A DNA stretch of 63,959 bases, filler included, from Neolecta irregularis DAH-3 (taxonomy: Eukaryota), in NCBI GenBank assembly GCA_001929475.1. It is 8 parts of 8 records of this genome, joined end to end, with 100 filler letters (N's around TTAATTAATTAA, not from the genome) between each part and the next. Parts side by side here need not be neighbours in the genome. Positions count along the whole stretch, not along the records: positions 1 to 19,930 come from LXFE01004370.1; positions 20,031 to 31,462 come from LXFE01000688.1; positions 31,563 to 35,177 come from LXFE01000692.1; positions 35,278 to 51,228 come from LXFE01000693.1; positions 51,329 to 55,079 come from LXFE01000696.1; positions 55,180 to 57,133 come from LXFE01000698.1; positions 57,234 to 59,045 come from LXFE01000701.1; positions 59,146 to 63,959 come from LXFE01000703.1. One strand, given 5' to 3'. Below, one piece after another: positions 845-60,402 of this stretch. The notes beneath the pieces were generated by a model, which saw nothing but the letters and a program-made list of their open reading frames with translations, ran no database searches and was not told the DNA's origin. Each line of letters opens with the position of its first letter. The first letter of the stretch is position 1. Position numbers and translations under genes: made by a program.

Positions 845-3096
845 ATGCCCGAACATAACACAGCAATAAATGATTCTGAAGTCGAGGTTTTCAGCGTTCC
901 CCAGCGATTGTTCGATGAATCCAAGCACCCAAAGCCTTTCATTTCGAGTTTCAATCAGTATCAAGAAATGTATGAGCGTTCAAACAATAAACCCCATGAG
1001 TTCTGGGGAGATCTTGGCCGAGAGCTTCTTGACTGGCAAACTCCATTCAAGACCGTTCAGAGCGGCAGTTTTGAACATAGTGATGTAGCTTGGTTCCTAG
1101 AGGGAGAGCTGAATGCCTCATACAATTGTGTTGATCGACATGCCATCGCTCGACCTGATGCCGCATCGTCTAACTTTTCCGTCCAAAGGCTCACTGCATA
1201 GATTGCAATTATCTACGAAGCAGACGAACCAGGTCATGGGCGAGAAATTACCTATTCCGAATTATTGCGAGAAGTCTGTAAAGCAGCTAATGTCCTCAAA
1301 AAGATGGGAGTCAGAAAAGGCGACACCGTAGCCGTCTATATGTCCATGATTCCAGAAATAGTCATCGCACTGTTGGCCATTGTTCGAATTGGTGCTGTTC
1401 ACTCTGTGATTTTTGCCGGGTTTTCCTCAGAGTCGCTCCGTGATCGGATTCTGGACGCAGATTCTCGTGTTGTTATCACCACCGATGAAGGACGCCGAGG
1501 AGGAAAGACTATTGGAACAAAACATATTGTAGATGATGCCCTAAAACAGTGCCCTCATGTTAAGCATGTCCTCGTCTTCAGGCGTACTGGGAACCAAGTT
1601 CATATGCAGAAAGGGCGGGACTATTGGTGGCACGAAGAACTTCCCAAATACCCCCCAATTTGTCCTCCCGAACGAATGAAATCTGAAGATCCCCTTTTCC
1701 TGTTGTATACCTCCGGTTCTACCGGAAAGCCAAAAGGCCTTATGCACACAACTGGTGGATATCTCGTGGGGGCAGCTGCATCTACGAAATACGTCTTTGA
1801 TGTTCATTCAACTGACAAGATCGGAACCGCGGGCGATATTGGATGGATCACTGTAAATGTGCTATCTTGTAATATACTAAACATTTTAGGGTCATACATA
1901 CATTCTTTATGGGCCTCTTCTTCTCGGAACGGCCACGCTTGTATTTGAAGGGACACCGGCTTACCCTTCATTCTCTCGTTACTGGGAAATTGTGGAAAAA
2001 CACAAGCTTACCCATTGGTACGTCGCTCCAACAGCAATTCGCCTCCTTAAACGAGCCGGAGACACTCATTTCAAACATGATATTACCTCTTTGCGGATTA
2101 TAGGCTCAGTTGGAGAACCAATTGCTCCAGATGTATGCACATATACATGAGTAGACTGATTATTAGATCTGGAAATGGTACTACGGAAAGGTTGGGAACA
2201 GTCAATGTCAGATAGTCGATGTATACACAATTTCGAGAAACTTTGCTGACGAACAAGACCTACTGGCAAACTGAAAGTGGATCCCATACAATTACTCCCT
2301 TCGCATGTGCCACACCCACAAAGCCTGGTAGTGCAACCCTCCCATTCTTCGGTATTCAACCAGTTATTCTCGATCCAGAAAACGGGAAAGAACTTACTGA
2401 TCCAAATGTTGAAGGCGTCTTAGCTTTTAAGAAACCGTGGCCTAGCATGGCTCGAACCATATGGGGGGCCCATGAACGATACTTTGATACTTATATGAAG
2501 CCTTATCCAGGCTATTATGTACTCAAGCAAACTTGGACGTTTTTGATGAGTTTAGTTCACGGGTGATGGTGCTAGTCGCGATTATGACGGATATTATTGG
2601 ATCAAGGGGTAAACATATTTCCCAAATCCCTCAATTCAATTCATAGACGAGTTGACGATGTCGTCAATATATCCGGTCATCGACTTAGTACAGCAGAAAT
2701 CGAGGCGGCGTTAACTAACTATCCCGGAATTGCGGAAGCCGCATGTTGTGGCATCCCGGACGAATTGACTGGCCAAGCTGTAGTTGCTTTCGTTTCGCTC
2801 AAATCTGGCATTGATGCTTCAGAAAATTTGAACAAGGAATTGACTCTCCAAGTCCGAAAAGCAATCGGACCATTTGCAGCCCCGAAGAAAATTTATCTAA
2901 GCATATCTCTCCATGTTGAACGACGCTGACGTTTGAAGTCGACGATCTTCCTAAAACTCGAAGCGGAAAGATCATGAGACGAGTCCTGCGAAAGATACTT
3001 GTGGGAGAACAAGATCAGTTAGGAGATTTGTCAACTCTCGCCGATCCGTCTACGGTTGAAGACTTGGTGAAAATCGTTCATGGTTCAAGTAACTGA
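845..3096 (+). CDS. ACS1: Acetyl-CoA synthetase, 7 introns (1163-1201 GC-AG, 1853-1889, 2133-2166, 2221-2257, 2519-2555, 2609-2646, 2901-2938 GC-AG)
   Basis: [14 protein letters not shown]-binding motif, [31 protein letters not shown]. Confidence 0.97.
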
Positions 3097-3546
3097 GGAG
3101 TCTTTCAATCTGCATTCTCTTCATCTTCTTATTAATCGATCATGATTGAATAAGTTGTATTCAGTTGACTCTACTTTTCAAAGGTACTGGATGTGATTCT
3201 TTGTTTAAATATTTTCCAAAATTATTTTTGTCTATCCCAAAGGATTTAAAGTAGCGCCCTTCAAACATGTGGAAATGCATAAAACTAGAACTTGTTCCAC
3301 TAATGTTATTGAACTCCATTCAAGTCGATTTACTCTTGGTGCACCCGGTCCGTCTTTATCTCGACCCCGCCCTACAGTCACTCTTTTGATTATTTGTCTT
3401 AGCCACAGTTTCTCTCGGTCTTAGCTCCTAATTACTAAACACTTGTGGCATTTCGACTGTTTCCACCTGACCACCATAGCCTCGCTTGGCTCATATTGCC
3501 AAGCATTTCAGCGAATCGTCCTTCCAGCTCGTCAGATTTATATCGA

Positions 3547-6099
3547 ATGGTCAAGCTATTCTCTTCAATGTGGCTGCCATGTTTCATAATAGGTTGTGCT
3601 CTGATGTCAGTAGAAGGTAAATACTATTGAGTTACAGAGGTGATACTACAGCTCGTTCATCGCGTCCCCCTCCCATTCGCTATGTATCGCATCTAAAAGA
3701 TATTATAGCTTTGGAGAAGAATGATCGATCATTGCATATTTCCTTTAGGCTGCCTTTCTTGGAAACACAGAGCCATACTAAATTGATTCTCGAACCAAAT
3801 AACGATATATTACAGCATCCAGAAGCATCAATAGAGTATCATGACTTAGAAGGGAACGTTAGAAAAGAGCCTATTACGAGGCAAGGGGTTCAAACATATC
3901 GAGGAACATGTTGGGTAGCGGATCATGAGCATGATTGGCGTGAAGCGGGATGGGCTGCGATTACTCTCATCCAAGACGGACCTTTGTTTGAAGGAGCATT
4001 CATGATAGATGGAATGGCTCACCACGTCCAGCCATGGCGGAAATACTCTGCCCGTAGAGGCGCTCTCGACTACAATGTCCGCGGAACGAATGAAAATATG
4101 GTTATCTGGACCGACTCCCATATCGAAAGTTTACCAGAACTTCTCGTCAACGGCCATTCATGTCCCGCCGATAGGCTCCCTTATAACATCGATCCAGAAA
4201 ATTCAATCAACAAATATTTTAGCTATCAGCAACCCAACACATTATTTGATTTCTGGAGTAGTAATAAAGCTTTTGGATATGGTTCCCGATTGATGAAACG
4301 TCAAAATATCGATGGGAGTTCAGCCTTATTACCGGGTTTTACGAGTAGTACGACCCTTGTCTCTACTATCGGAAATACCGATGGATGTCCAAATGTTAAA
4401 AAGGTTGCTCTTGTAGGTGTTGCCGTGGATTGCGAGTACGCCCAAACTTTTTCAAATTCTTCCGAGACGAGAGAACATATTATCACACTCTTCAATACTG
4501 TCTCAACTGTTTTCGAATCGACATTCAACGTTACACTTGGATTGCTTCAGCTCGTTATATCGGATACAAATGCTTCATGTCCGTCTTCACCGCCAAGCAA
4601 CCAGCCTTGGAATGCCAATTGCAACTCGAATTTATCTTTAGATGATAGATTAAATCTGATTAGTACATGGCGAGGAACTCGGTCTGGAGATGGTATCGCA
4701 TTCTGGACTCTTCTTACAAAGTGTAATAGCGGAACTGAAGTTGGCGTAAGTCAATGCCTTGCTACGATTTAATGTATTTAGGTTGCTTGGCTCGGAACCT
4801 TATGTTTTGATGAGACCCAGACTCAAGGCAATACTCAGGTAAGCGGAGCGAACGTTGTTACCCAGGGGAGCTCAGAATGGAAAGTTCTCGCCCATGAAAC
4901 TGGACATGTGTTTGGTGCTGTGCATGATTGCAGTATGTAACTTTTGGGTATATTTGTTGACCTTGTAGTGAGTGGATGTGCTGCTGTAAACACGACTTGC
5001 TGTCCATTCACTAGAACTCAGTGCGACGCAGGTAGTCAATTCTTGATGAATCCCACTACTGTTCAGAGATCAAATTCCTTTAGCCCTTGCTCAGTTGGGA
5101 ATGTGTGTTCCGCAATAGGGAGTCGAGCTGTCACTTCATCATGTCTTACAACGAATAAGAATATCAAGTTGATAACTGCCGGCCAGTGCGGTAATGGAAT
5201 TGTAGAAGAGGGAGAGGATTGCGATTGTGGAGGTGAAGAAGCCTGTGCTGGCAATAAATGTTGCAATCCTAAGACCTGCAAGTTTACAACAGGATCCGTT
5301 TGCGAGTATATCTATCTTATGCTATGAAATCTAATGGCATAGTGACTCGAACGAATCATGCTGCAAAAACTGTCAGTATGCTCCATCCTCGCAAATCTGT
5401 CGAGGGAGTCGAGATGAAAAGTGTGACCCATCTGAATTTTGTACCGGGACGTCATCGGCATGTCCAGAAGACCAGTTGGTATCAGATGGCACATCATGTG
5501 GTGCAGGTAGTCTGGCCTGTGCTAGTGGTCAGTGTACTTCGCGGTATCTATGTCCTCCTTTGCTTTTGCTGATGACTTTTCTGCAGAGATCTGCAATGTA
5601 CAACACAAATCAATGGAACAACTGGAGATTGTGGTCTTCTTGACTGCCAGGTTACATGCAGAGCACCTGAATTTGGGCCTGCAACTTGTGTTTCGCTACC
5701 TCAATACTTTCTTGACGGAACACCCTGTGGAATTTCGGGGACATGTGGTAAAGGTATTTGCCGGAATCAGAGCGAGATTCGTGCTGTCAGTACTTGGATC
5801 AAACAGGTTTCCCTTTCGATGACGCTCTCGTTAACATTTTCCAGAATAAGACTATCGTTATCATCGTAGCCGCAATCGTAGGAGGCCTGCTTATCTTTTG
5901 TGGCGCCCTGTCTTCACTCCAGAGACTACGAAGAAAACCGACTGCACAAATACGACCTCGTCATATTCAATCTCGAAGATATCAAACTCGCGCGAATATG
6001 TTTCAGGTTCCTCCTGGTCCACAGCACCCAAATCAAGTCTTATATGCGCCTTATCCACAATATCCCGGTCGCAATGCTCCTCCAGAGTACTACAGATGA
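3547..6099 (+). CDS. ADAM-family metalloprotease (prodomain, reprolysin, disintegrin, Cys-rich, TM), 6 introns
   Basis: Signal peptide, KR processing site, HETGHVFGAVHD zinc motif, CGNGIVEEGEDCDCG, C-terminal TM and Pro-rich tail. Confidence 0.93.
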
Positions 6100-6266
6100 G
6101 TCCTCTTCATTCCCGAGTTGGCAAAGTCTTTCTTTTCGTGTATGGTTATAGATTGGAGTTATTTTAAATACATTTATTATCACACGCATCGTAACAATAG
6201 CGTAAACATGAAAAATGCAATGTGTGCTAACTCTACAGCGCCCCTAACTGAAATACGGAAATTTGC

Positions 6267-6945
6267 TTATGCCATGTTCTCAGTGGTGTCGCTCGGATTT
6301 CGGTCGAGCCAAAAGAGCAGACAATTATACCAAATTCTCGTTGTTTGATTGACTTCGTCGTGATCTGGTTCTTCAAGGATCACATTGTAAACATGACTAA
6401 AGGCCATAAAAGTCGACACGACTGTCATGACGATCGACATTATAGGAAGAAAAAAGAGCACTAGTACAAACCGCATTGTTGAAGATTTGGGAGGGCAATC
6501 TTTAATCATTCGAAAATGCAGATTTATGATAGACTGGTAACTCGAAGAAATCAGATTTCGAAAGGTTCCTGGGAGTGGTTGGATAGGAACAACAGACAGA
6601 ACGAAACCGAATGAACTGAACAGCAGCCAAATGAGGCCTGAAATACTGAGAATCATGTTGAAGAACAAGAAATAAAACTGCGAGTTCATCAAGAACGCTC
6701 CAGACAACCATTGTTACCCAAGCCAATCCATGAAACTCGCCATCGATATCGTTACAAATCAACATTGACTCTGAGTAGTACAGCGTTGTATCTCCCCCGG
6801 AACAGAGCGATAAAGAACGAGGCTGTGTATACTTCTCATTTGTGAATAGTGAGACAGGACCAGGTGACTTTTCTTGCGGAGAAGGATGGTAAGTCGCTGG
6901 TGGAGGCGTAAGAGGCAGAACTTGCTTATTCTGGCTAGTATTCAT
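6267..6945 (-). CDS. Hypothetical membrane protein (two ORFs, perhaps joined by a GC-AG intron at 6698-6740)
   Basis: Pro-rich N-terminal ORF followed by a hydrophobic ORF; the frames join through a GCGAGT donor. Confidence 0.45.
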
Positions 6946-7618
6946 AAGCCTTGGATCCAAGCGGATTGCTGGAAATAGCTGGAAAGACCGGAAAGGCGAG
7001 GATAAATAGCAGACTGGCCGGTTAAGAAAAGCGAATTCGTCGGGGTTTGCCCCTTCCCACTATTGCTTGGCATTAGAGATTGCCGGCCTTGGCAAATGCA
7101 ACATCAGGAATTTGAAGCTTTGTAACCATACCGAGTCTTTCCCTGTATTTTCCATGCGGGAAAAATACGCCATAGAACCCTGGGGTAAGCGAATCATGCT
7201 GAATAGCCCAGACCTGGAGGTTTGGAAAATTGAATATTAGGGAGGACCACCGATTGGTTGACTCTGCGATCTCGGAAAATGCCTCCTCACCTTTACCTCT
7301 GAAACATCAGAAAGATGTCCCCAAACTGAGATTCGCAAGTGAATGTGTCCAAGCCACCCTACAGAAGGGCTGTGCAAACCCCACTTGAATATCTTTTCGG
7401 GGTATTCATCTGAACACTTTAAAGGTGGAAAATATTAACCTTTTCGATCCCTTAACATGAATCATTGGAGTCACATTGCTCGAGATATCTCAGTTCTAGA
7501 TTTCTACTAAATTCTTCTGATGCTGCCCCTGTGCACTGCCTTCGTTTCTCCACATCTTATTCGCAGCTATATACCCCGTGTATTTCCATCATCTGGGTCC
7601 CTTGACCAGTTCAGAGTT

Positions 7619-9572: not shown

Positions 9573-9813
9573 TAAAATTTGCCTAGAATTTCCTGTACAT
9601 TCATGTTTCATTTTAGATAAAGCAAAGAATGAAGTCAACTTTTGCTCGTACATATGCAATAGCCTTGAATAACTGAAATTGAAAAAAAGATCGGAGGCAA
9701 AGGAAGAACCTTTAAGTATCTTACAAAAGGGAAATTGAAACGATCATTTTTCGACGAACACGAAGCCAATAACCAGCCTATTAACTGTTAAGTAATACAG
9801 GGTCTAATAATGT

Positions 9814-12266
9814 CTATGGGTCGCCTTCGCCCTCGCCGTCTTCATCGTCGTAATCCTCGTCGACTTCGATGTTTCTCGAGGGAGGCTCGATCTCGTCATC
9901 CGGATCTTCTTGCCTAATTTCTTCCTCGCGAGGCCAACGATTAATTGATGTCCGTCGCTGAGGTTCATGAGGATATGGTGGCAGTTCTCTGGGACGATCC
10001 ATAATGGAAGAATTCATTTTGGGCCGAGGTGGCTCGTCTTCATCCCGGCGTCGTTTAATTCCCGATTGGCCGTTTTCGCTAGCAAGAGGATCACGAAGGT
10101 CAGATGTATATCGGGTTCCACGTGGGGAGATAAGTGGACCATTATCCATATGTACTCTCTCGTGGTTGGGACTGTTTCCCCGGCCAAGAATAGGAGCAAG
10201 ACTTCCTCCGGGCGGGGCCGGTCGATTGGACTGTGATTGCATATTTTGTGGTTGTGGTTGATTTTGGGAGTTTGGTGGGTAAGACAAGGCAGAAACGGGT
10301 CCGGGTTGCTGTTGCGAATGATGTGACTGAGGGTATCCAACACGAAGTTGAGGAGGAAGTTGTTCTCGAGGTAGTTGCTGGCTGTAATGCTGAACTGGAG
10401 GCCCCTGTTGTACAGGCGGGGGACTCCGTCGAATGGGTGTTGGCATTTGTTGTCGAAGACCGTTCATTGGCGGTGGTCCATTGGCCAACGAAGGTACAGG
10501 TTGCTTGGATAACTCGGGGCTAGTCATGTGTCTCAGAGGAGGCTCCTGGCGGTACTTTGAAGGTGGTTGATGCGGCAAATGAGCAGGCATAGGGCCGCGA
10601 TCAGAAGGACGATCTGTACCATTTGGTCGAGATGTCTCTACTGATGGCTGTGTCCAATGTGTAGGCGGGCCTGCAATAGCAGGCTGGTAAGCAGTGGGAT
10701 TAACATCTTGAGGGTGAGGAGCATTGTTTGCATGAGCCCCGGCTTGCCCACCTGAGCGAAGATAGTTTAGACGGCTTTTGATATGATGGTTCTGGGGATC
10801 GAGCTCTGATGCTCGAGTATATGCATCAATCGCATCTTGAACTTGATTGTTGCAAGATTCGTACTAAATTTAATTATCATACATCCCCCAAGGTGACACA
10901 TACCAGTGTTCCCAGGTCGTACCAAACTTCTGAGATATAGGGATTCAACCTTATTGCCCGTGAATATGCATCCAGAGCATCGCGGTATTGATTAATCTGA
11001 TAGTAGAGAACGCCGATGGAACACCAAAACGTTGGATTATGACCGTCACGATACACTGCTTGCTGATATGCTTCGTACGCCTTGTTGTACTTTTGTTGTG
11101 CCATATAACATCGACCAAGGAGGTACCAACTCTGCGCATCGTTGCCGTCTTATTATTAATGTAAAGTAGGCTTAAAAGGGTACGAACCAACTTCAAGACT
11201 TTTAGTCAAGTAAGACACGCCAAGCTCTTGATTAGTAAACGTGGTTCCCGGCTGATGATGCAGCCATCCAAGCTGTTGAAGAACTTTGGCATGGTTGGGG
11301 TTTTCTGTGAGGACACGCTCGTAAGCTTCTTTGGCCGATTTGAACTATATTCAGTAAGCCTGCAAACATTGGGTCGAGAACCTCTTTCTGACTCTCGAAA
11401 ACGTGGCCGATTTGGAAATATACGTCGACTTCGGTAAGCGGCCGAGGGGGGTCATTTAGGATATATTTAAAACACTGATCGTTATCTAGGTTCGACACGA
11501 TGATGCAAACCTCGAGCGCTTGTTGGAATTTGCGTTGTTGCTTATATATTATTCCCAGTCTAAAGTAGATCTCATTTCCCTTTTCGAAATTCGGTTCCAT
11601 CCGGAGAACTTGGGAGAATGCTTCTTCTGCATGATCGTAGGATCCATAGCGATCATAGAGAATTCCAATGCCGTACCATAGCTTGGGCTCCTACACATTA
11701 AAATATGGAGAGCAGTGATCCAACCTTTGGGTTCTGGAGATGGTATAGGGCTTGCTGATAAGCACCATAAGCTTTTTGAAGATCATCCATCATAAGATAG
11801 CAATGGCCTGCTAGTTAGCGTGACCCGAGGGACAAAGAATTGCCTAATGAACTCCACACCTCGCCGTTATTTTGCTCGATTGCGATAATTCTTTGTAGAA
11901 ACTCTATCGCCTGGATATAAGCTGTGGAGCACGGAACAGGGGTCCAGATACGTTCTGGAACTGTTCTTTGGATCTAAGAACGGACGCGATCTGAGTCATG
12001 GCCGGGATGGAATAGGCATTATGTCGCAAAGCGTTTTCGTATGAGGCTAATGCGCGTTCGGTATCGCCCATGAGCTCTGCCGTCTTTCCCAGCTGTATCC
12101 AGACGTCTTCGTTGACGGTAGCGAGTTTCTGGATGCTTGCCGATTGCGGAGGAGCAGAATGCTGGACGCCATTCTGGTAGTGGACATTTGCCTGTTGTTG
12201 CTGCTGCTGTTGTTGTTGTTGCTGTGGATGGGACGGAGGAGGCCTGTTGACGGCTACGTTTGCCAT
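9814..12266 (-). CDS. SSN6: Ssn6/Cyc8 TPR corepressor, 7 introns (11808-11843 GC-AG)
   Basis: PolyQ N-terminus; TPRs including AYEAYQQAVYRDGHNPTFWCSIGVLYYQINQYRDALDAYSRAIRLNPYISEVWYDLG; VDEDYDD tail. Confidence 0.96.
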
Positions 12267-12944: not shown

Positions 12945-12952
12945 TGTGACTG
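12945..12952 (+). promoter_or_regulatory. HomolD box TGTGACTG upstream of RPL3
   Basis: Exact match to the fission-yeast ribosomal-protein promoter element, 70 nt before the ATG. Confidence 0.7.
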
Positions 12953-13021
12953 GGCACTGAACTGGCTTACTTTTTCCCAAACCACCATCTTACACCCCAG
13001 CTTACCTGTAGTATATAGGCC

Positions 13022-14762: not shown

Positions 14763-15206
14763 CTAATAATCCAAGTTGATTGCCTTTCCAAATTTCCCAT
14801 AAAGAAGTTTCTTTAGCTCTGCCATTTCCTGTTTTATCTCGTCCAATTCCTTGCTCAGGAAATCTAGTTTCTCGTCCGTCAATTCTTTTGCCGAATCGAG
14901 ACGCGATTGAACTTCTTCCAGACTCATCAACCAAAAGCTATCGCCAACCTGGTATCTACTTCAGTCAGGAAAAAAAGGCTGAATAATATCTTTCCTGATA
15001 AGTTCATCCTCGTCGCTCAAAATGAGTTCGTTGATTGTATCATCTAGCGAATCCTTCTCTTCTTTCTTGGAAGCTATCGTAGTTTCGATTTCGTCTAACC
15101 GTACATTGAGACTTGAGAAGCGATTAATGCGTTTTTGATCCTCCCAGGCTACTTCTGCATCTGTTTCCTCCTGCGATGAAATAAAACTTAGATTCCCGTC
15201 CGACAT
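14763..15206 (-). CDS. GIM3: Prefoldin subunit 4, single GA-AG intron at 14956-14994
   Basis: EVAWEDQKRINRFS, DEDELIR/YQVGDSF, LYGKFGKAINLD. Confidence 0.92.
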
Positions 15207-17041: not shown

Positions 17042-17078
17042 CGCTGCCGAATGAATGCCCGCTGCCGAATGAATGCCC
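17042..17078. repeat. 18-nt perfect tandem duplication
   Basis: CGCTGCCGAATGAATGCC present twice. Confidence 0.9.
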
Positions 17079-22602: not shown

Positions 22603-24912
22603 ATGGAAGGACAATCTCTTCAAACACAAAATTCATATTATCTATTCTCTTCTCATGATTTGGATCCAAATATTACATCTTGGAAGGTGTCGCACCTAAT
22701 GAATGATGATATCGAAGCCCAAGTATTCGCAAAGCTTAAAGACTCTGTCGAGCCACTACTCAATGATAAACTATTCATCCCTTCGAGTTCCCTGATTTGG
22801 CTTCAACGATGTCTGACTCTGAGTTGTCCGGAGAACTTCACTGGAAGCAGCAATAACTTCAAAGTGGATATACCTATAATCGAAAACCTAGAGTATTCAT
22901 GGTTTTTGAGTATTCGACCGAAAACACTTGCCAACGTTCAATTAAACCCAATTGATCTTAACGAATATTCAGACGAAGGCTTATCAATCCCAGAGCGATG
23001 GAGATCGACCATGGATCTGGATGACCTCATGATTGTGCCCAAAGAAATCTTCTGGCATATTCGGGAGGCCATTACTCCCAGACAATTCAAGGACATAGAA
23101 TTCAAGGTAAGAAGCAATCTTGATACTACAGCTGAATTCACAGCATCCTCGAGAACTTACGCCTCTCATGATGCCATTAACACCTCCACCTACCTCCCCT
23201 AGGACCTCACCAAAGCTCTCAGTATTAGCCACAGAGCTTGAATATTTAGTCAAAGAAGATAAAAAATCCAGTTATATTGACGAAATCTTTACACCAGATC
23301 AGCAGCTATTGCTACCTCAGGAGATCATGTCTTATATTAACGATACAATTGCACCCCATGTTCCCACTACGCCTAAATGCAAGCGAGGGCGCGAGTACGA
23401 GCTGGAAGATCCTCTCACGCCATCTTCGCCACAGAAAAAGCGATTTACCCCGGATATCCCGGATATCTCTAACTGGAAAATTCCTTTCAAGACATCATCT
23501 CCCCTAGATCTGAGTGGAATTTTTGAAACAAATGAATCTATCATGGAAAGTATCTTTCGAGAAAAACTGAATGAATTTGATGCTTTATTACGAGTGCCAC
23601 TTGCAAAAGTTCCAGAGGTCTCTGGATTGTCAATATTGCCCAAAAGACTGGCGGATCTAACAACAGATTTCAGAGCCTTCGAGGTGCCAAATATTAAAGG
23701 GCTAGATCTCGACGTCTCTTGGAACCCTTTCTCCGAAAAGCCTTCCATAGATTTTGGAACAATGACAGGAGACGATACCCCGGACCTTGTCTTCAAAACC
23801 ACGATTGGGCAAGTCCTCTACAAGTCCAAATTTGATCGCGAAGACTGTGAAATTTTTCTCGAAGAAGCCGAGAGTGTTGAAGCAGCTCCACCTGAAGGGA
23901 CTTTACAGCAAACCAGAAATCATTCAGATACACCAATGGACATTGAACCAGGCTCAGATATTACCTTTTCTACTTTGGATGATCTCGTGAGACGTCGCAC
24001 GAAGAAGAAAGCTCTGGCATCTGAATCTTTGCAATCGCCTTCACGTCACTCTGGTCTGAATTTACAAGATTTCTTATTACTCAGAGGTCAAAAGATTTCC
24101 TTGCAAAAAGGATCTGTTCAAAACCTTGAACTCGGGAAACTCAGCACGATACCATTAAAAGATGTCACCATTATTGAACAACCTGCGCGGAAAACGTTTT
24201 ATCCTGATATACCAAAATTTACAGGCGACCTTATTATTTCTCCCAGAAATTCAAAGCTCTTGCGACAACTCAAAGTTCTTTGTCCACACGCTACTTTCTT
24301 TGAGAGAGACCTTCTACTTCTTCCGAATGACGCAGATGCAGATATTATCCCATCTGTTCAATGTGCGATTCTCATATTCACTATCAGTCAGATTCATCAA
24401 CTTGGAGATACTGTAGCTAAACGACGTATTCAGAGTTGCAGAATTAAATTCGACATCATCGAACTTGTCGTCACTTACTCGGAAAGTATTTCTTCCGCAG
24501 AAATGAGGTCCTTATCTTTGCTTTCTTCAATGAAGGTACGTTGGACATTGGCGAGAGGAAATGAAGCTACTACTGCTTGGGTTGCTTTTCTCTGTGCGAA
24601 AAGAATTGGTCGAACTAAATTGACGGAGGAAGAATCATCGGAATGTTGACTTACTGGAGCATTAAGCTAACAGCACAGCATGAGAGATGGTTAAGAGCGT
24701 TCCCTTGGGTCAATGCTTATGCAGCAATGGGAATTCTTAGAGAAGTTTCTCTTTACGAGTTCTGTCTGATGGAATGGGACGAGTTATTGTTAAGATTTGA
24801 AGATTTATTGCCGCGAGATAAACTGGTATGCCATCCTTCTTTAGAAATTATTCCAAGATTTCTAGGAATGTATCTTCAAGACTTTACGATCATGGTCCGA
24901 CATTGCTATCTG
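22603..24912 (+). CDS. Zip2/SHOC1-like meiotic XPF-like protein; introns 23107-23143, 24641-24678 (GA-AG), 24826-24864
   Basis: LEDPLTP, FERD...DADII, EESSHERWLRAFPWVNAYAAMGIL...LYEFCLM HhH-like tail; family recognised from memory. Confidence 0.55.
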
Positions 24913-26699: not shown

Positions 26700-27276
26700 T
26701 TTGTTCGAGCGTCCTTAATCAAAATTGCCAAGTCTTTGTCTAGAAACTCTAAGTACACGATGCGCATTTATGGAGAATACCCATTTCATTGACTTGAGTC
26801 TTTAATTCCAAATGTTCAATCTGTAATCCATTGTAGATATTTTTCATTTCTTCACGCAGACTTTCAACATCTTCCTGCAAGACGCCATCCTTATTCAATC
26901 TTCTCACTTGTTTTTCTAGCTCATCGATACGTTTGAGATAGGCACTGATCTTGATTGTACTGCGCTTGAAATATCAGATTGGGTAGTAATTGTCAGTATG
27001 CTTGAAGTTCCTCGACGCTGCTCATCAAAATCTCGCTTGCTGAGCGATATTCTTGAATAAGGAAGCTATAGCCGGCGATTCCTGCAACAGTTGTTCCTAA
27101 GAAAAAGCCTAGTATTCTGCAGTTACAGCATCTTCACTATGATTGACATACGATCCCCGAAACCTCCCAGCTGTCTTTTTCCTCACAAACACAGAATTAC
27201 TAGGCGCAGACACGTACGCAGTTGTTTGTGCATTGAAATTGCGTAAAGAAGTAGAGAGCAGGCGACGGAAAATCAT
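26700..27276 (-). CDS. Small single-TM coiled-coil protein, probably mitochondrial; intron 26965-27001 is GC-AG; 3' end approximate
   Basis: Presequence-like MIFRRLLSTSLR, RFRGSILGFFLGTTVAG TM, coiled coil. Confidence 0.7.
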
Positions 27277-47503: not shown

Positions 47504-50500
47504 TCAAACCGCACACCTAGATTTCATGCCCCTGTTCTTGTTGACCCATTTTCTTGCTTCGTCAATCCACATGACCGAACTGGCTAGGAAGGTCAATCCT
47601 ACAAGGTCCCACAGTCCAATTGGTTCCGTTTGAAAGACGTTACGTAGGAAAGGAGTGTAAATTACCAACAGTTGACCGAGAAGAGAGCCACCGACGGCGT
47701 AGTTAAACACGGTATTCGTAGGCATCGAGAAGACTGATTTTGTGGCCGATCGGCATGATAATGCATTAAACATATCAAACAGCACGAAACACGTGAATGT
47801 CTATGGACAAAGGTCAGTTTTTGCACGAGATATATCGGGGGTAAATAAGCGAACCATTGTTGTGTCTCGAGAAGTAACTTGTCCGTCGACGAGATTGTAC
47901 ATGTAGACGATTAATGTGCCGAGTAAAATGACGCAAGCCTGTGTACATACGCGGAAAAGGACCTTTCGAGTAAGAATAAGGGCGTCTCTGGATCTAGGAG
48001 GTTGAGACATGACTTCTGGGTCGACTGATTCTACTCCCAATGACTGCGCAGGCGGACCATCCATAAGAATGTCTAGCTTATCAGCACCCAGAAGAGAATA
48101 AATAGTGGAATTACTGATCCAAAGGATTTGCATAGCGTTGAGGGGGTTGGGAAGACCAAAGAGGGTTGAAATAGCGATCAATGAGAGAGCAGCCATACTT
48201 GTACTCAGCTGAAAAGTCACAAAATTCCGAATGTTATAAAAGATTGCTTTTCCTAATATTGGGTTAGATGGAGCTGATAAGAGTTTAGAAGGAGTTCAAA
48301 CCTTCTTCGATGGCACCCAGAATGGTGGTGAAATCGTCGTCGGTGAGAATCATATCTGCTGCTTCTTTGGCCACATCTGTACCCAATTTTCCCATACTTA
48401 TCCCTATATCAGCTAATTTGAGCGCGGGGGCATCGTTCACGCCATCCCCTGTCATTGCAACAACTTCTCCTGAAGCTTGTAGTGCCTTTACAATTTTCAT
48501 TTTATGGCGCGGTGTGGTCCGTGCAAATATTGTGACTCTGGAGATAAGTTCTTGGAGTTGTCGCTCAGACAGGTTATCTAATTGTTCTCCTGAGCAGACG
48601 GAATGGAATTGCGGGATTCCAAGGGATTGAGCTATCGATACGGCGGTTTGCTCCGAATCGCCGGTGATCATGATGACTTTGACTCCTCCATGTAGTAATT
48701 TCGAGATACTTTCGGCGACATGAGGACGCGGAGGGTCATACATTCCGACGAGGCCGCAAAATGTAAGATCTTGTGGCGATGACGAGCGACCGAGAGCGAG
48801 AGCTATCACCCGGAGACCCTGTTGTGCCATTTTCGATGCTGCAATGTTGATTTTTTTAGGATCGAGGGGTTCAGTTTTCCCATCACGGTATAACTGGTTT
48901 GTGCAATTTTGAAGAACGCAGTCGTGTGCTCCTTTTACGATACAGAATTGTTCGGTAGAGCCATAAGTATTTCCAGTGACTGCCTGCCACTTTCGTTCAC
49001 TTGAAAAAGGAATTTCTTTTGTCCGTTGGAAAGTCTGCTAATTAGGTAAGAGCAAGTTAACATATACATCTCGATTGTCTGTGAGACCGAAGGATGAGAG
49101 AATTTCCATGAATGCAACGTCTGTAGGCTGACCCACAATTTTTCCATATTCGTTTATTCGTGAATTATTGCAAATATTTCCTATCCAGAGGGCTTTCTTT
49201 AGGGCGACGTTGTGGTTGAGAAGGTAATGGGCACTTTCTACTGTGCAGTCGATGGGCTCATCGTCTCCACAAGTGTAAGTATGCGTGATGGTCATATGGT
49301 TCATAGTAAGGGTGCCTGTAGTAAACATACTGAAGGGAAAAGAGCGGGCTACCAGTTTTATCGCTGCAGACGACACTGACACTGCCTAGGGTTTCCACAC
49401 TGGGAAGTCTTCTAACGATGGCCTTTCTACCAGCCATTCTGAAGACACCCAAAGCGAGGGTGACTGTGACAATGATGGGCAGACCTTCTGGGATGGCAGC
49501 AACGGCGAGGGATACGCCGATGGTGAACATATCGAGCCATGGGCGGCCCTGGACGAGACCAATGAAGACGATGACACCAATGACGCAGAAGCTTAGGAAT
49601 GAGAGTTGTTTTCCGAGGGCATCCATGGACTGTTGGAGGGGTGTTTTTGGTTTCTCGACCTGGAGTCAGTTTGGGGGGCTCAATATCTGAAGACTTGCCG
49701 TCTGCATCAATGAAAAGACTCCGCCAAGCTCTGTATCCATGCCAGTGCCAACAACAAGCCCCTTTCCATGGCCTGGTGTGAGGGGCAGTATGGGGGGATA
49801 GGAGTATACCATGACGGACCAGAGTGCCCATGAAGGCTATGTTTCTGCGGTCTGTGACGGGGAGAATTTCGCCGTTAGACTGGATGGCATTTACATGTTT
49901 TTCTGTGGGCTCGTTCTCGCCTGTCATGTTGCTTTCATCGATCTGGAGATGGACAGCCTGGTGGTGAGCTATTAAAAAGAAAATAGAGGAAGGGGGCACC
50001 TCTAGGAGACGCAGGTCAGCGGGGATGCGGTCGCCAACATGAATCTTTATTATGTCGCCCGGGACGATTTCATTTGCGAGGAGGCGGATGCTGTGGTCGC
50101 CGCGGAGAACGGAGCAGTAATGGGGCACGAGCTTGTTCAGCTCTTCGAGTGATTTTTCTGAGCGGTACTCTTGGACGAAGCCAACTGCGGTCAGCGAGAT
50201 GATTCAGAAAAGAGTCTGCGTACCTGTGGTGACGATGAGAATGGCGAGCGAGATGCTGAGGGCGTCGTCGGTGTTGCCCATGAGCAGCGATACTGCTGCA
50301 CTGCCCAGCAGCAGCAGAATCAGCGAGCTCTCGTAAAACTGCTTGACAAAGCGCAGCAGCAGGCCTTCGTGCTCGGGGGCATCCAGCTCGTTTGCACCGT
50401 GGACAGCGCGGCGGTGGGCGGCCTCGCGGGGACTCAGGCCGTGCGGATCCGCAAACAGCTGGGCGAGAGCATCGGCGACAGACAGCTCGCAGAAGCGCGC

Positions 50501-50554: not shown

Positions 50555-51329
50555 GGGCGTGAGAACAAGCAGGATGCGCTTGTTCTGGTGGTTGGACAGC
50601 CTGCTGTCTCACTCTGTCTGGCTCTGTCTCTCGCTGTCTCGTTCCTGAGTAGTGCCCCTTGGCCACAGGCGTAGACGCACCTGCTGCACATGCGTTGCTC
50701 TGCCGTTCAGTCGTCCATCCCGCCAGTCGCGCATCCTTCCTCTCCGAAGGCCCAGTTATTCAGCCTTCAGCTGGTCCCGGCTCGTATTGCTAATCGTACT
50801 GGAAACTATAGGCTGCCACCACAGCCTCACGAGGACACCAGCCCCAGGACGCCAGCACTGCAGCCCACAGCGGGCCAGCCATGCTCCTGTCCTGTCCTGC
50901 TTTCCTGCCGCCTTCAACACCATGTCTTGTAGTTATTATTACGCACAACCAAAATCCATGCAGCGTTTTCTCTCGTCCATTCAGAAACATGTATTTGTAC
51001 CTTTCATCCTTCCTAGCGATGGAGCCTATTATTATTCAAATATTGTTTTGCACTCTATTGTCTACGAGTTTCGACAAGCTCAGTTAGAAGCTTTCAACCC
51101 TGCACCATAACGTTTAGCCCCCAAAATATGACTAAAATTGGGATATTAACTATGATAAGCCTAAGTCCAATTCTGGACTTTGGACTTGCTTGCTTGCATA
51201 TTTCAGGCCTTTGGACTTGCTTGCTTGGNNNNNNNNNNNNNNNNNNNNNNNNNNNNNNNNNNNNNNNNNNNNTTAATTAATTAANNNNNNNNNNNNNNNN
51301 NNNNNNNNNNNNNNNNNNNNNNNNNNNNT

Positions 51330-54300
51330 TTTCCCTTGTTAATTTTTGCTGCAAATTTAAGCTTTCTGTAGCAAAATATACTTGTTGAGATGTTATACAA
51401 GTATGAAAAAGGTTGATATCATCAGAATTTCGGAATCGCTCAGCTGGTGGGGTGGTTGGTGGAACATTTGGTTGATTTTTGACTTGTGACAATCCAATGA
51501 CTTTAGCCGGGTTCCACTGAAATAAACCAGCGGCTTTCCAGCCACCTCTAATAACCCGTTCAGTAAGAGATTCCTGTCTTGCATCATGGTAATATTGAAT
51601 AAACCGATTTTTCTTAACTGGAGCTGCATCATCAATATGAGAAAGTTCAGTGATTTTTTTTCTATGTTATCTGACAGTAGCTATGTAGCTAAATCTACTA
51701 CTGTCCCCATATCTTCTCCATCACATGAAATCATAAATGTCTCCCTGTCTGGCAAAGGCTTAATCAAATTGCCTTTTACCATCAGTCAAAAGAAAGTACA
51801 AGTGGATGCCATAGCACTAAAAGATGACGGAGTGACACACAATTTCATTGCAAGAAAATTTGTTCAAAAACATGGCCTGGAAACCAAGCTTACTGGACGA
51901 TCAGTAAAAGTTGTCATGTCTGATAAGGCTGAGTGTCAAGTTAAATCTCAGCCCCAGGCCCTGGTATTGACTCTGGTATGGATTCCATCCAATCAAGGAC
52001 AACTTTCATTCTTCAACTCATTCGAGGTTGCAGACCTAGGGGCATATGACATGCTCCTAAGTAAAAAGTGGCATGAAAGATTTCAACCAGTCATTGATTA
52101 TCACAATAATGCATGCAAGATTGCAGTCCATGACTTGATTACCCATTCTGCATGAAGTCAAGTTATGACCTGCAACCTGGCAGAAATAATTGATTCAGAT
52201 GAACTCTTTCTAGCAGTAGCAGAAAGAATACTGCCACTAGAATCCAAAGTGCAACTCTCCAGTGGAATGAAAGCCTTATTGGTGGAATATGATGATGTCT
52301 TTAATGAAAACTTCACTTTCCCACCAAAGAGAGAAGAAGATCATAAAATCTCTCATTGATCCAGCTAGACTTCCCCACAACAGACCTGTACCAAGACTCT
52401 CTAATGCAGAAGAAACAGCAATGAGAAAAGAAGTCCAAAGTATGTTGAAGAAGGGGTTTATCCAACATAGTACATCCCCTTATAGAGCAGTGTGCCTCTT
52501 TGTCAAGAAGAAATCTGGCGAATTGAGGATGTGTATTGACTATCGAGACATTAATACCAACACACTAAAGAACAATACAGCACTCCCAAGGATTGATGAA
52601 CTGCTTTACCAGATTGGCAATGCAGGTTGGTTTTCTAAATTGGACTTGGCATCTGGCTATTTTCAGCAATGACTACACCCAGATACTATCCCTCTATCAG
52701 CTTTTAATATGAAAATGGGGCACTATGAGTTTAAAGTGCTACCATTTGGCCTGGCTAATGCACCTGCCATGTTTATGCAAATGATGAATAGGGCTCTAGT
52801 GGGGTTGGAGTATTGCTGTAATATCTTTATGGATGATGTGCTAATATCCGAGTCAGAGAACCAAAGATTTCCAGTCAATCCTACAATGCCTTTGCAAAAG
52901 GAAACTATTTGTGAAACTTAATAAATGTGAATTTGAGAAGAAAGTTATTAAGTGGGTGGGATTTAAAATATCCAAGAAGGGCATTGAAGCCCAAGATTCC
53001 AAGATTGCATCAATTAGAGAATGGAAAGAACTGTCAAATGTCAAGGAAACCCAAGCATTCTTAGGAATGCTAGGGTTTTATCAATGCTTCATTCTGAACT
53101 TTGCAACTATCTCAGCACCCCTCTCAGAACTAACTCGAAAAGATCAACCATGGCAATGGGATATGACTCAAAAAATCACATTCCAAAAGTTAAAACAGGC
53201 ACTGGCTTCTCCCCCAGTGTTAGCATGACATGACCCATCAACACCCTCAATACTAACTTGCAATGCTTCATCAATTGGCATTGGAGCAGTACTGTCACAA
53301 AGGGGGGCTGATGATTTAGAACATCCAGTTATGTTCATGTCCAAGAAACTTGATGTGCTTCAAAGGAACTGGACAACCCATGACAAGGAGTTGTTTGCCA
53401 TCAGAAAAGCACTGGAGAAGTTTAGGCCTCTATTACATAGAGCCAGGTTTACAATCTGAACTGATCGCAAAGCAATTCAGTATATCCTGAAGCAACCAAA
53501 ACTAAATTCTAAGCAGATTTGCATGCTTGTATTTATGGCAGAATTCTCAGACTTCGAAGTTTAATACATCCCAGGGGCAGATAACCTTGTTGCTGATGCA
53601 CTCTCCAGGAAAACCAAATTCGAATGTCTAGCAGTAATGTTAGAGAATGATGACTCTTGGATGGATAAAGTTCAGCAATCTCTCAGTCAGTTAGATTGGA
53701 ATGATACCTGGTAAAAACTGTTGAAAGAAATACCATCTGAGGACTTTGAATTACAAGATGCATTACTTCTATGAGATAATCAGGTTTGCATCCTAGAGAA
53801 TTGTACTCTGGAACTGCTAAAAGTTTACCATGATGACCCATCAAGTGGCCACCCTGGAACCAGGAAATTCTTATCCTCACTGGTGAAAAAGTTTTACTGG
53901 AAAAAGATGTCTAAGCAAGTTGAAGATTTCTGTAACCCCTGCATAGTATGTGATATGGTCAAAGCAGATACAAGTAAAAAAGCTGGACTATTACACCAGC
54001 TCAATATCCCAGAAGAATGCTGGGTAGAAATCACAATGGATTTCATTACCAGACTGCCACTAAAGATGCCACTTCAGGTCCTCAAAGACCATGTGCTATG
54101 AAAAGGATCTTGATAAACAACTTTTAGATCTGTATTTTTCCCTGCATGGCATTACAATGCTGCCACCGAAATGCAAGTATGATATGAAGGGCCATTTACA
54201 ATCACCAAAAAACTGACAGATCTTAACTATGACTAGAACTACCCCCTTCATCTTGTATCCACCCAGTTGTGCATAACAGTAGGTTAAAAAGAAAAATCAA

Positions 54301-54360
54301 AATGACAGAGGCAGGGAGATGAGAACTGCCTCCCCCAGGACCATTGAAAACCATTTATAA
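51330..54360 (+). mobile_element. Degenerate Ty3/Gypsy retrotransposon (gag remnant, protease, RT, RNase H, partly deleted integrase)
   Basis: LRMCIDYR, KLDLASGY, LPFGLANAPA, FMDDVL, NWTTHDKELFAI, ITMDFIT, GPF motif; many stops and frameshifts. Confidence 0.93.
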
Positions 54361-54421
54361 TGACTTTCTTCGAAGGGTTCATATACACAAACTTGAAAAG
54401 AAAAACTACCTAATGAAACAT

Positions 54422-55014
54422 CTATAAACTTATCCATTTCCTCCTCAGACTGTTCTTCCCCACTGTTTCCTTCCCTTGACAAAAAGTCTGCAACTTAATT
54501 ATGAAGTTGTACATCCTGATTAAAGCTAACCACCTAGCCATCATAGCATTAGGCATGTCTTTTGGGGATAGATTAACCATCCAGAGCAGGGTATGGGCAT
54601 CTGTCTCAATCGTAATATGGTTGCCCAAGATCCAGTAGTGAAACTTCTTGAGAGCCTTGGCAAGCCCCAAGCACTCCTTTTGGATATTCGCATACTTTTG
54701 TTTGGCCAAATTCCAGGTTCCTGATGTCATCATCCTCCTGTTGGATGATGGTTCCCCATCCTTGCTCACTGGCACCAGTCATGATAATGATCCAACGAGT
54801 GTAGTCCAATGCTCTGAGGATGGGAGCCTGGCATAGCAGCTCCTTCATGTGGTCCATAGCATGCTGCTCAGTAGGAACCCAGTGAAACCTTGCATATTTC
54901 TTGGTGAGGTTGTATAGTGGCCTCATCATGTGTGAAAATTCCTTAATCCAGACCCTGTAATATGTACAGAGCCTGATGAATCCTCAAACAGCCTTGACAT
55001 CTCGACAGGGTTCC
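54422..55014 (-). mobile_element. RT-connection/RNase H fragment of a second Ty3/Gypsy element
   Basis: RPLYNLTKK, ECLGLAKALKKF, IETDAH, PNAMMARW. Confidence 0.85.
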
Positions 55015-55079: not shown

Positions 55080-56329
55080 NNNNNNNNNNNNNNNNNNNNN
55101 NNNNNNNNNNNNNNNNNNNNNNNTTAATTAATTAANNNNNNNNNNNNNNNNNNNNNNNNNNNNNNNNNNNNNNNNNNNNTACGGGGAGAGCACGAGATTT
55201 CAATATTATGTTAACAAAAGCCGCCAGCAACGACATTTTATGGATACTATCATTACAACCGACGAATAATACTCAGAGCAGTGCAAATGTTTACAAATCA
55301 CATGATGACGAATAGATTTCTGGATTAATGTTCCTTTTGCTAGTAATTTGTTTAGAATAGAAATATATTTGAATTAAAAATTCAAATATCAGCTTGATGA
55401 GCTCTGTCAGCACGCGACGTTAGGTTGGGCGCTGATGTGGACTTTGATTGGATATGCCGACGTAGATACTGCCAGTAAGAGTAACTATGTATATTGAATA
55501 TGAGGTGAAAGCCTAGCCAGCTAGTCCAGCTAGGCGCTACTTATATACAGATTCGGCACATGTGCTGATACCGTCATCTGCCCGTTTGCCTCCCTACTGA
55601 TCTGCTGGGTGGCGATGCCTGTGACAGGCCTGACTGGGATGACCGGCGACCCTTGCTGCTGCTTGTGCTGGCTCCGATACTTTGGCGGTGGCGGTGGCGG
55701 TGGCAAGCTGGTGGGGGATGCGACGTGGAGGTAAAGTCGTGTCCCCACATAAGGCATAAATGAAATATCTACTAGGCTCTTCAAGAGGAGATTTTAATCA
55801 GACAATTGCGGAGATTAGAAACAATAATTCGAGAAAACAATTAGAAAATCCAGTGTTCACTTGGGAAAAGAATTTCATGACTGAAACATATGATATCATG
55901 TGGTACATATCTAATCTTAACATAGGCCCTAAGAGACTATCTGAGGCTGCATATTAAGATATTAGGTAGTTTTGCTGTATGGAATCCGGTCCTGTAGCCT
56001 AATGTCCATGACTTGATATGATACACAGGTTATAGTTCATGATGTAGTGCCCAATATGAATTCAATTAGTATGATATTGAGAGCATGGTCGCAGTGAGAT
56101 TGAGAAAAGAAGATTTCAAAAGAGCACCACCAATGCATGAGCGACAACAGAATGTGAAACTGAATAGATCCTAATGACAGAACCCGCACGATGGCGTTGG
56201 GGTTCTGAAAATCCGCTCGAAAAAATATGAAACATTCCAGTTCTGAAAATACATAAAAAGAATCTTGGGTGCCAACGGACTATATTTGTTTACTACCATT
56301 CCCACTAGCCAATCAGTTTGCCCTTTATT

Positions 56330-57133: not shown

Positions 57134-57233
57134 NNNNNNNNNNNNNNNNNNNNNNNNNNNNNNNNNNNNNNNNNNNNTTAATTAATTAANNNNNNNNNNN
57201 NNNNNNNNNNNNNNNNNNNNNNNNNNNNNNNNN

Positions 57234-59045: not shown

Positions 59046-59145
59046 NNNNNNNNNNNNNNNNNNNNNNNNNNNNNNNNNNNNNNNNNNNNTTAATTAATTA
59101 ANNNNNNNNNNNNNNNNNNNNNNNNNNNNNNNNNNNNNNNNNNNN

Positions 59146-59191: not shown

Positions 59192-59309
59192 TTGCCGCAA
59201 TATTATTGCAAACCTTCCTTCCGTAATGGTAAGCTCTACCCAAGGGTATATGCTTACACTGTCCATTAGCGAAGAGGTCTCCTGTTGTGATGTAAGGTTT
59301 TTAGCGGGT

Positions 59310-60402
59310 TTAATTTGGAACCTTGAAGTGGGTTCGAGCTTTAGTGTAGCTTGCGATGTAGAAAAAGATGAACAGGACGAGGTAGCTTGAGACGATAGAG
59401 GTGCCAATGATTGATGCGTAGTCATTTATTGCGCAAATTCCGGCGTGTGGGAGCCAAGGCCATCTGGTGAAGGCAAAGTGTCTACGAGTGAATGAGGATT
59501 AAACAAATTAATACGTATAGGTCACAAAGTAGCCGACAGCTAAGGTAAGAAATGAAGGCAAGCGGGCGTGTACCAGCACCTATGACGAACTGGATGATTT
59601 GGGCTCTGGTGACCCATTTTTTCCACCAGACGGAAATTCCTCTCGAGGACAAAAAGTAGTACCAATACTTTGGGTTAGAGGGTTGGAGAGCGGAGTACCA
59701 TTAAGACATGGACGGCGAGATTAAGGACGATTACGACCCAAGACTTGGGATCAGAAGTGTTAGTAGGGAGACGTACAGCACTAGTACGTCCACGAAGCTG
59801 ATTATAGCAGAGGAAGATAACAGTGCCATGATGGTAGGGATGTAGAAAGGCTAGGATTAGCGGAGGAGGGACAATTTGGCATACTGAGTTTTTTCTTTTT
59901 CAAGACCAAAAAGACGGTATCTAACAATTCGACCTGGGGAGAATGAGAAGGAGAGGAGAGGGGACAAGTACGTATTTAATGAGATAGTTCATCTGGAAGT
60001 TAGTATAGCGGAATTTAGGATGAATACGTAGTAAAGGACGAGGAGTTCCTGTGTCCATGCCTCGTCACTGCATATAGCATACAAGAGTCCGTGCGAGTAG
60101 AAGATGGGGATAAGCTGTTCGAGAAAAAGAAGGAGCAAAAGAGCCGAGATGACAGTTAGAAAGAGATTAGTGAGCTGAAAAAGGCGATTGAGCGGCATTG
60201 GAATCAGATTGCGCATAAGAGCCTGCCCCCCGAAAATGAGGGCATAGTAAGAGACGATGGCTACTGCTACCTCAGAATTAGTGGCCAAGAAAGTCTTCCC
60301 GGGAATAAAAGCAAAAGATGCTGTATTATGGGAAGAAATTCGAGAGTAGAGGGAATCAAAGATGGGCCAGAGAAAAGAGTCAGCACTGCTGGAAGGGAGC
60401 AT
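59310..60402 (-). CDS. ELO: Fatty acid elongase (GNS1/SUR4 family), 7 introns
   Basis: [42 protein letters not shown]. Confidence 0.93.

Follow-up and report, generated by a model that had tools for sequence, protein, structure and literature searches.

The window, by which we mean the whole 63,959-nucleotide stretch of joined Neolecta irregularis DAH-3 contigs analysed here, carries genes for acetyl-CoA synthetase (ACS), SSN6/CYC8, prefoldin subunit 4, a small coiled-coil mitochondrial-type protein and a PMR1-type Ca-ATPase. A sequence-only reading had placed non-GT donors in these genes and at one further site. Inspection of the window DNA found the stated dinucleotide at all seven positions, exactly as had been recorded: GC at 1163, 2901, 11843(-), 27001(-) and 49698(-), and GA at 14994(-) and 24641. 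That reading had also held that all seven were needed to rebuild the encoded proteins. This stood for six of them, the five GC donors and the GA donor at 14994; it did not stand for 24641, where GT-AG alternatives exist and no relatives of the protein were found in Pfam or PDB.

In ACS, homology placed a 39-nt GC-AG intron (GCATCG...CATAG) at 1163..1201 on the plus strand, and a contig assembled from DNA run X1 was identical there. The spliced model aligned without a gap to all 11 full-length relatives. The 21-nt GT alternative at this position would add six residues, which occur in none of the 11. The intron has CTCAC where the branch motif YTRAY is expected. A second GC-AG intron of 38 nt (GCATAT...TGAAG; 2901..2938, plus strand), also placed by homology, has a CTGAC branch site, and its removal gives back the conserved C-terminal 53 residues of the enzyme. 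Reading of the sequence found no in-frame GT alternative to 2901. The X1 contig over this region was identical to the assembly save for one differing letter at 1879. The NCBI model of the gene, P0005, is broken at both places: it uses a GT alternative at the 1163 intron and skips 32 conserved residues, and it has no intron at 2901, running on to a stop and lacking the C-terminal 53 residues.

The SSN6/CYC8 gene contains a 36-nt GC-AG intron (GCAATT...AGCAG; 11808..11843, minus strand) with a CTAAC branch site, placed by homology and identical in the X1 contig. Its model ran without a gap across invariant TPR residues in comparison with 10 of 10 relatives. The NCBI model, P0144, takes a GT 9 nt upstream of 11843, which keeps the frame and loses three invariant residues. 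The same model leaves in a clear in-frame GT-AG intron, translated as 12 additional residues, which indicates that the NCBI models were not guided by junctions. Both P0005 and P0144 match the window exons at 100% identity.

The GA donor required by homology lies in prefoldin subunit 4. A 39-nt GA-AG intron (cag/GAAAGA...AGTAG, the slash marking the exon boundary) lies at 14956..14994 on the minus strand, with a CTGAC branch site; it was placed by homology, and the X1 contig was identical. A search among longer proteins yielded four relatives only, at 47-48% identity, and no proteins from transcripts of the organism itself were found. The junction was free of gaps against three of these four, the fourth having an 8-residue deletion of its own at that place. 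A single residue, R, whose codon is split, separates the exon ends; relatives P0001, P0002 and P0003 likewise have one residue there. The closest upstream GT is 105 nt away.

Two further GC donors were also supported by alignment. The small coiled-coil protein has a 37-nt GC-AG intron (GCATAC...TCAAG; 26965..27001, minus strand) with a CTGAT branch site, placed by homology, and its spliced model showed no gap against P0245, which is 82% identical. The in-frame GT alternative, of 52 nt, would remove five residues that are kept in 5 of the 5 relatives covering the site. In the PMR1-type Ca-ATPase, a 39-nt GC-AG intron (GCAAGT...CTCCAG; 49660..49698, minus strand) with a CTGAC branch site was placed by alignment to human SPCA1. 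The flanking exons abut on consecutive residues of chain 8iww_A: residues 212-233 of the chain correspond to residues 2-23 of the 24-residue query, and residues from 236 onward start at residue 2 of the next exon. The same gene contains an in-frame 42-nt GT-AG intron (49958..49999, minus strand) with the weak donor GTGCCC; reading through it would give a 14-residue insertion relative to SPCA1.

The remaining site, 24641, is a candidate. The parser preferred a 38-nt GA-AG intron (tcg/GAATGT...CACAG; 24641..24678, plus strand), and the alternatives are a 29-nt GT-AG intron at 24645-24673, which keeps the frame, and a GT-AG intron of 34 nt, which shifts it. The protein matched no Pfam family (three exons searched) and no PDB entry (two queries). 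The exon 3' of the site had a codon score of 7.8, which is only weakly informative: coding windows scored 9.9 +/- 3.8 and stop-free non-coding windows 1.8 +/- 4.2.

Errors of assembly or base calling, pseudogenes, or the use of nearby GT donors in vivo to give slightly different proteins could each mimic such introns. The choice of GT alternatives by NCBI at 1163 and 11843, the lack of an annotated intron at 2901, and the in-frame GT alternatives at 11843, 27001 and 24641 would all fit an artefact of this kind. Against it, the GT alternatives drop residues invariant in 10/10, 11/11 and 5/5 relatives, no usable GT exists at 2901 or 14994, the genes are otherwise intact, and the NCBI models, as noted above, were not guided by junctions. 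The sequence-only reading had also asked for DNA reads to be used against assembly error. Contigs from run X1 (word depth 390-500), which amount to a second assembly of the DNA, showed no differing letter at the four donors compared, 1163, 2901, 11843 and 14994; since X1 is perhaps the assembly's own source data, the comparison may not be an independent one. Taken with the alignments, these observations make an artefact very unlikely.

The introns of the window are short and their donors weakly defined. Among 32 validated introns the median length was 37.5 nt (range 34-44), with a YTRAY branch motif 7-15 nt before the AG. The 28 validated GT introns used 21 distinct donor hexamers, and G occurred at +5 in 12 of them; information content was 1.19 bits at +3, 0.50 at +4, 0.12 at +5 and 0.56 at +6. 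The degenerate GT donors reported earlier were borne out: GTTTCC has RNA support, alignment of SSN6 supports GTTCTC and GTTGGA, and the 14-residue gap relative to SPCA1 supports GTGCCC. The accompanying proposal, of a spliceosome that asks for hardly more than G at +1, was right in that the donors are unusually relaxed and overstated in its extent, since about 94-95% of introns have T at +2 and all 34 validated introns have A or T at +3.

The six non-GT introns resemble the rest, with lengths of 36-39 nt. Five of the six had a YTRAY motif whose distance to the 3' end was 5-22 nt, as compared with 16 of 28 GT introns, numbers too small to judge compensation; in four of the five GC-AG introns it lay 7-11 nt from the 3' end. 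GC donors usually carry a strong flanking consensus (AG/GCAAGT). In the window, only 49698 (GCAAGT) has one, and the other four do not. Matches of the five GC donors to CAG/GTAAGT numbered 2, 4, 6, 4 and 6 of 9, and the mean for GT donors was 5.1.

To place these introns in proportion, the whole window was parsed. This gave 92 GT-AG introns, or 97 introns when donors were relaxed. An intron penalty of C = 16 was used; penalties of C = 14 to 11 yielded 145-545 introns, of which 5-37 fell within RNA contigs colinear with the genome, and for this reason C = 16 alone was kept. Adding supported introns that the parser missed and removing unsupported ones gave an estimated total of about 105-110. 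The earlier denominator of roughly 95 was about right. The parser also proposed a GC-AG intron at 7060..7099 (minus strand), which was rejected because transcript contig 10 of run X2 is colinear with the genome there, over 6745-7814; the gene model around it had no Pfam support. A candidate GC-AG intron at 63461..63497 (plus strand) came from the parser only, in a gene without Pfam family support.

Six donors required by homology among about 105-110 introns correspond to a non-GT share of about 5.5% in this single 64-kb window. The 95% binomial interval for 6 of about 108, by our own estimate, is roughly 2-12%. Fungal annotations are 98.7% GT-AG, that is, about 1.3% non-GT-AG, according to PMC7072748 (section 3.1). 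At that rate, at least 6 non-GT introns in 105 would be found with P = 0.0026 for one window.

It could be that the introns are real and the genome ordinary, with about 1% GC-AG introns as in other fungi, and that the window is rich in them by chance. The window was picked because of its non-GT excess, and at a genome-wide rate of about 1.3% roughly one of some 230 such windows would be equally rich. Transcript data also leave room for this. Contigs from RNA run X2 were spliced, with 41 joints over 180-19930, and the 15 of these listed all lie in genes other than those with non-GT sites. They establish that introns of this size are truly spliced, 13 of the listed joints being bounded by GT..AG or CT..AC and one being a composite with a 16-nt microexon; the introns in the 15 listed joints comprised 15 GT-AG introns, one ambiguous joint and no confirmed non-GT intron, which fits a rate of 1% as well as one of 5%. 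An odd joint in TSC10 can be read as 16259/16296 or as 16302/16265. Speaking against chance are the low P value and the spread of the six introns over three separate contigs, which shows that they are not one local cluster. Both NCBI models examined, ACS and SSN6, were broken at a non-GT intron, having been picked for those sites. The weakness of the GT consensus also counts against an ordinary genome, as it makes tolerance of non-GT donors plausible. We therefore regard a chance-rich window as unlikely, if far from negligible.

The class of the introns was considered by comparison with known systems. In fungi, animals and plants, about one intron in a hundred is a U2-type GC-AG intron, and such introns are processed by the normal spliceosome. 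The five GC introns share with them G at +1, C at +2, an AG 3' end, an ordinary branch site, a length typical of the genome and a place in housekeeping genes; GC and AG are present in the DNA at all five sites, and removal of each intron restores the conserved frame. They differ in their share of the window's introns, about 4-5% as against about 1%, and in that four of the five lack strong flanking consensus. Assignment to the minor (U12-type) spliceosome, which non-GT-AG termini might bring to mind, is extremely improbable: the donors GCATCG, GCATAT, GCAATT, GCATAC, GCAAGT and GAAAGA are unlike RTATCCTT, the branch sites are CTRAY and not TCCTTAAC, and every intron ends in AG. Neither the U12-type donor nor the branch TCCTTAAC was found in the six non-GT introns.

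GA-AG introns also occur in Oikopleura dioica and Eurytemora affinis, species in which a variant U1 has been proposed (PMC7072748), and they offer a second comparison. The 14994 donor shares with them an AG before and an A after the GA. In those animals, PMC7072748 reports, GA-AG introns outnumber GC-AG introns and in one of the species make up 3.2% of the junctions with support; in the Neolecta window, by contrast, one or two GA donors stand against five GC donors, so GA is not the commoner. These points bear on whether changed machinery, such as a putative variant U1 5' end or isoform, U6 ACAGAGA box, Prp8, U1C or Luc7, actively licenses GC and GA donors. The AG/GAA flanks at 14994 and the uncompensated GC donors would be in keeping with such a change. 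However, GT is clearly preferred, as the frequency of T at +2 indicates, and a normal spliceosome handles GC-AG introns elsewhere. A search of the window for Rfam RNAs, snRNAs included, returned no matches. We consider actively licensing machinery rather improbable, somewhat more so than chance enrichment.

Probably, then, these are genuine Neolecta irregularis introns of the U2-type spliceosome, with five GC donors and at least one GA donor, which would be accommodated by the way in which short introns are recognized. The introns are close to minimal in length, and little is left of the donor consensus beyond G-T-(A/T). With introns so short, the 5' end would be defined across the intron, set mainly by intron length together with the branch site and the AG, and extended pairing with U1 and U6 would count for little in the choice of donor. 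If donors are defined in this way, a change of T to C at +2, or rarely of T to A, would cost little and could persist in roughly 5% of introns, those of essential single-copy genes included. A bolder form of the proposal is possible, and we lean against it: a donor code of G-N-(A/T), non-GT donors, GA among them, in at least 5% of some 20,000 or more introns, a ruler measured from the branch site that would take the place of U1/U6 pairing in introns of about 37 nt, and lineage-specific changes in U1, U6 or their protein partners. On that reading, a sizeable part of the 5,546 published gene models would be wrong.

Pneumocystis and Schizosaccharomyces, short-intron members of the Taphrinomycotina, share with Neolecta the subphylum and short introns driven by the branch site, and our literature search turned up no account of an elevated non-GT share or an equally weak donor consensus in either. 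Neolecta is intron-rich, with 4202 introns in 1211 orthologues according to PMC7940399. A literature search found nothing in print on non-GT donors in this fungus. The terms intron, splic, RNA-seq and gene model are all absent from the main text of the genome paper; Supplementary Table 1 of PMC5309816 may include statistics on introns or describe how genes were annotated. Neolecta is absent from PMC7072748, and PMC8476143 mentions it once, as a data source only.

Should the whole genome show the rate seen in the window, Neolecta would offer a natural example, in a free-living fungus, of a relaxed donor GU, elsewhere near-invariant, with the usual compensation absent. It would then provide a test case for how far U1 and U6 pairing is needed in 5' splice-site choice at minimal intron length. 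There would be consequences for comparative work as well. The Neolecta proteome has been used in studies of how complex multicellularity arose (PMC5309816) and of intron evolution (PMC7940399, PMC8476143), and model errors of the kind seen in ACS and SSN6, the two of two NCBI models examined, would make too many genes seem 'divergent' or 'lost' and cause introns to be miscounted.

The window has a GC content of 0.40-0.47 throughout, and seven identical spacers, each 44 N + TTAATTAATTAA + 44 N (19931-20030, 31463-31562, 35178-35277, 51229-51328, 55080-55179, 57134-57233 and 59046-59145), split it into eight pieces. It is therefore a chain of eight contigs, and genes on either side of a spacer are without physical linkage. 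Window exons were 100% identical to the NCBI N. irregularis DAH-3 proteins P0005 (acetyl-CoA synthetase, ACS) and P0144 (SSN6); the assembly is described in the text of PMC5309816 as 14.5 Mb, with an N50 of 16 kb, 44% GC and 5,546 genes. An Rfam search of the window gave no match. Positions 180-838, with a word depth in the DNA sequencing run X1 about 4x that of the rest (1662 versus ~420) and many loose ends, form a repeat at the end of the contig. At 52200-54800, broken reverse-transcriptase- and integrase-like ORFs on both strands, named from translated ORFs alone, suggest a retroelement remnant.

The sequence-only reading had proposed seven introns with non-GT donors, six of which were supported by sequence comparison. 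When ACS (845-3096, +) was spliced at the GC donors 1163 and 2901, there was no gap at either junction against 11 of 11 full-length relatives. The NCBI model P0005 (594 aa) takes as donor a GT lying 79 nt upstream of 1163, with the loss of 32 conserved residues, and reads through the second intron, at 2901, to a stop, so that the C-terminal 53 residues, also conserved, are missing. With a 21-nt GT-AG alternative at 1163, the protein would gain six residues that occur in none of the 11 relatives. The SSN6 model (9814-12266, -) with GC at 11843 was gap-free against 10/10 relatives, its junction lying within a TPR helix and the junction residues being invariant. P0144 (738 aa) uses a GT 9 nt upstream, which deletes three invariant TPR residues. 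It also translates an evident GT-AG intron that is in frame (11475-11510), which adds 12 residues; the public models were therefore not junction-guided. Both NCBI models are wrong at the non-GT introns.

In the gene with the GC donor at 27001(-), use of an in-frame GT 15 nt upstream would remove five residues that are kept in all five relatives covering the place (P0245, 82% identical, and four more distant), and the GC model aligned to P0245 with no gap across all four exons. The PMR1 donor at 49698(-) is a classical GCAAGT. Residues 2-23 of the 24 in the preceding exon aligned with human SPCA1 (8iww_A) 212-233, and the following exon, from its residue 2, with 236 onward, so the facing exon ends fall on residues 234 and 235. 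For the GA donor of prefoldin 4 (14994, -), the codon for one residue (R) is split between exon 1, ending in ...DEDELI, and exon 2, starting YQVGD...; exactly one residue occupies this junction in three of four relatives, the fourth having its own 8-residue deletion. The closest upstream GT is 105 nt away, and the sole GT within the intron lies 4 nt from its end. Cutting one or two bases further upstream, at GG..TA or AG..GT, would formally yield the same mRNA. G at +1 plus a terminal AG is given solely by the GA..AG cut. The seventh site, 24641, belongs to a protein for which Pfam and PDB searches returned no relatives. A 29-nt in-frame GT-AG alternative has a poor branch site and is shorter than every validated intron, while with a 34-nt frame-shifting alternative the protein would stop three codons on; the downstream exon leans coding, weakly, by codon score. 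We regard 24641..24678 as a candidate GA-AG intron, at about even odds.

Assembly error at four of the donors, which the sequence-only reading had wished checked with DNA reads, found no support, as X1 contigs (word depth ~390-500) carried no other letter at 1163, 2901, 11843 and 14994. This agreement excludes a consensus slip, not a heterozygous T, and the assembly may itself have been built from X1. In principle, the GC donors could regain GU through C-to-U editing; editing that converts A to U is not known. U12-type introns were ruled out by donor and branch sequences.

Contigs from a second run, X2, matched the window exactly yet skipped stretches of 35-44 nt; X2 is therefore transcript-derived, its kind being recorded only as a guess ('DNA?'). 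Positions 180-19930 held 41 X2 joints, and the findings given here are from the 15 listed. Thirteen of these 15 had GT..AG or CT..AC, after alignment shift was allowed. Joint 13026/13125 in RPL3 (13027-13126, +) was a pair of GT-AG introns (40 and 44 nt) on either side of a 16-nt microexon (13067-13082, +) found in a transcript contig. Joint 16259/16296 in a TSC10-like reductase (16260-16301, -) was reported as AC..CA ('both = 4'). At a distance of 6 nt there is an equally long canonical GT-AG intron with the product in frame, and the joint may be either a placement made by the aligner or a genuinely unusual junction. The 15 listed joints of 41, a sample unbiased by donor type, included no confirmed non-GT intron. 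X2 contig 12 (17481-19238; depth 27.5; five other letters) was unspliced over a well-scoring predicted intron at 17941-17974, which may reflect intron retention, an allelic difference or carried-over DNA.

The validated GT set comprised 28 introns (15 from RNA, 5 from ACS, 6 from SSN6 and 2 from the 27001 gene), among which 21 different donor hexamers occurred. Position +3 was A in 21 and T in 7, and +5 was G in 12; information content was 1.19 bits at +3, 0.50 at +4, 0.12 at +5 and 0.56 at +6. Degenerate GT donors already remarked on were borne out: the SSN6 alignment supported both GTTCTC and GTTGGA, RNA supported GTTTCC, and for GTGCCC the support was a 14-residue gap against SPCA1. Position +3 was A in each of the six supported non-GT donors. 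The proposal that this spliceosome needs little more than G at +1 was overstated, since T occurs at +2 in ~94-95% of introns and +3 was A or T in 34/34 validated introns. Validated lengths (n = 32) were 34-44 nt, with a median of 37.5.

A purpose-written Viterbi gene parser, which combined codon log-odds and a length distribution with matrices for donor, acceptor and branch site, found 92 introns in 34 genes of at least 100 aa when restricted to GT-AG, and 97 when C or A was permitted at +2 (penalties of ~4.6 and 6.2 bits). Its non-GT calls were exactly the seven proposed sites plus GC candidates at 7099(-), ruled out by an RNA contig colinear with the genome there, and 63461(+), seen in the relaxed parse alone. 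Of 16 introns with RNA support the parser got 9 exactly right; it misses stop-free in-frame introns, and it called three in a doubtful gene (7465-6267) colinear with an RNA contig. With missed supported introns added (SSN6 1, PMR1 1, RPL3 ~4, TSC10 2, the 27001 gene 1 and, by eye, an ELO gene 5) and unsupported ones removed, the window total was estimated at ~105-110. By eye, with exons placed by ELO motifs, this ELO-type fatty-acid elongase gene (59310-60402, -) apparently has eight introns, all GT-AG and 31-40 nt long, one of them with donor GTGCTG; the parser found three.

Annotated fungal genomes average 98.7% GT-AG according to the text of PMC7072748, in which Neolecta is absent. Against a 1.3% rate, the probability of at least 6 non-GT among 105 introns is P = 0.0026, and of at least 5 among 115, P = 0.018; the supported sites are spread over three contigs. 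This excess was measured in one window chosen for that very feature, and the listed joints held no confirmed non-GT intron, so a species-wide property needs a genome-wide count. Literature searches for 'Neolecta' with 'GC-AG' found nothing, nor any statement on Neolecta splice sites. The main text of the genome paper (PMC5309816) lacks "intron" and "splic", and PMC8476143 names Neolecta only as a data source. The text of PMC7940399 describes Neolecta as intron-rich (4202 introns in 1211 orthologues), with counts from the same annotation.

The non-GT introns are ordinary-looking and short, with a GC or GA donor, uninformative +4 to +6 positions and, at the GC donors, no compensating consensus. 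Recognition across a minimal-length intron might make extended U1/U6 pairing less important, and substitutions at +2 would then be tolerated; the stronger reading proposed earlier, an altered U1, U6 or Prp8, is possible. The original observation was largely right and its interpretation is partly supported. Sequence comparison in this one window points to a fungus whose introns are of minimal length and in which GC-AG and GA-AG are used at a raised rate.
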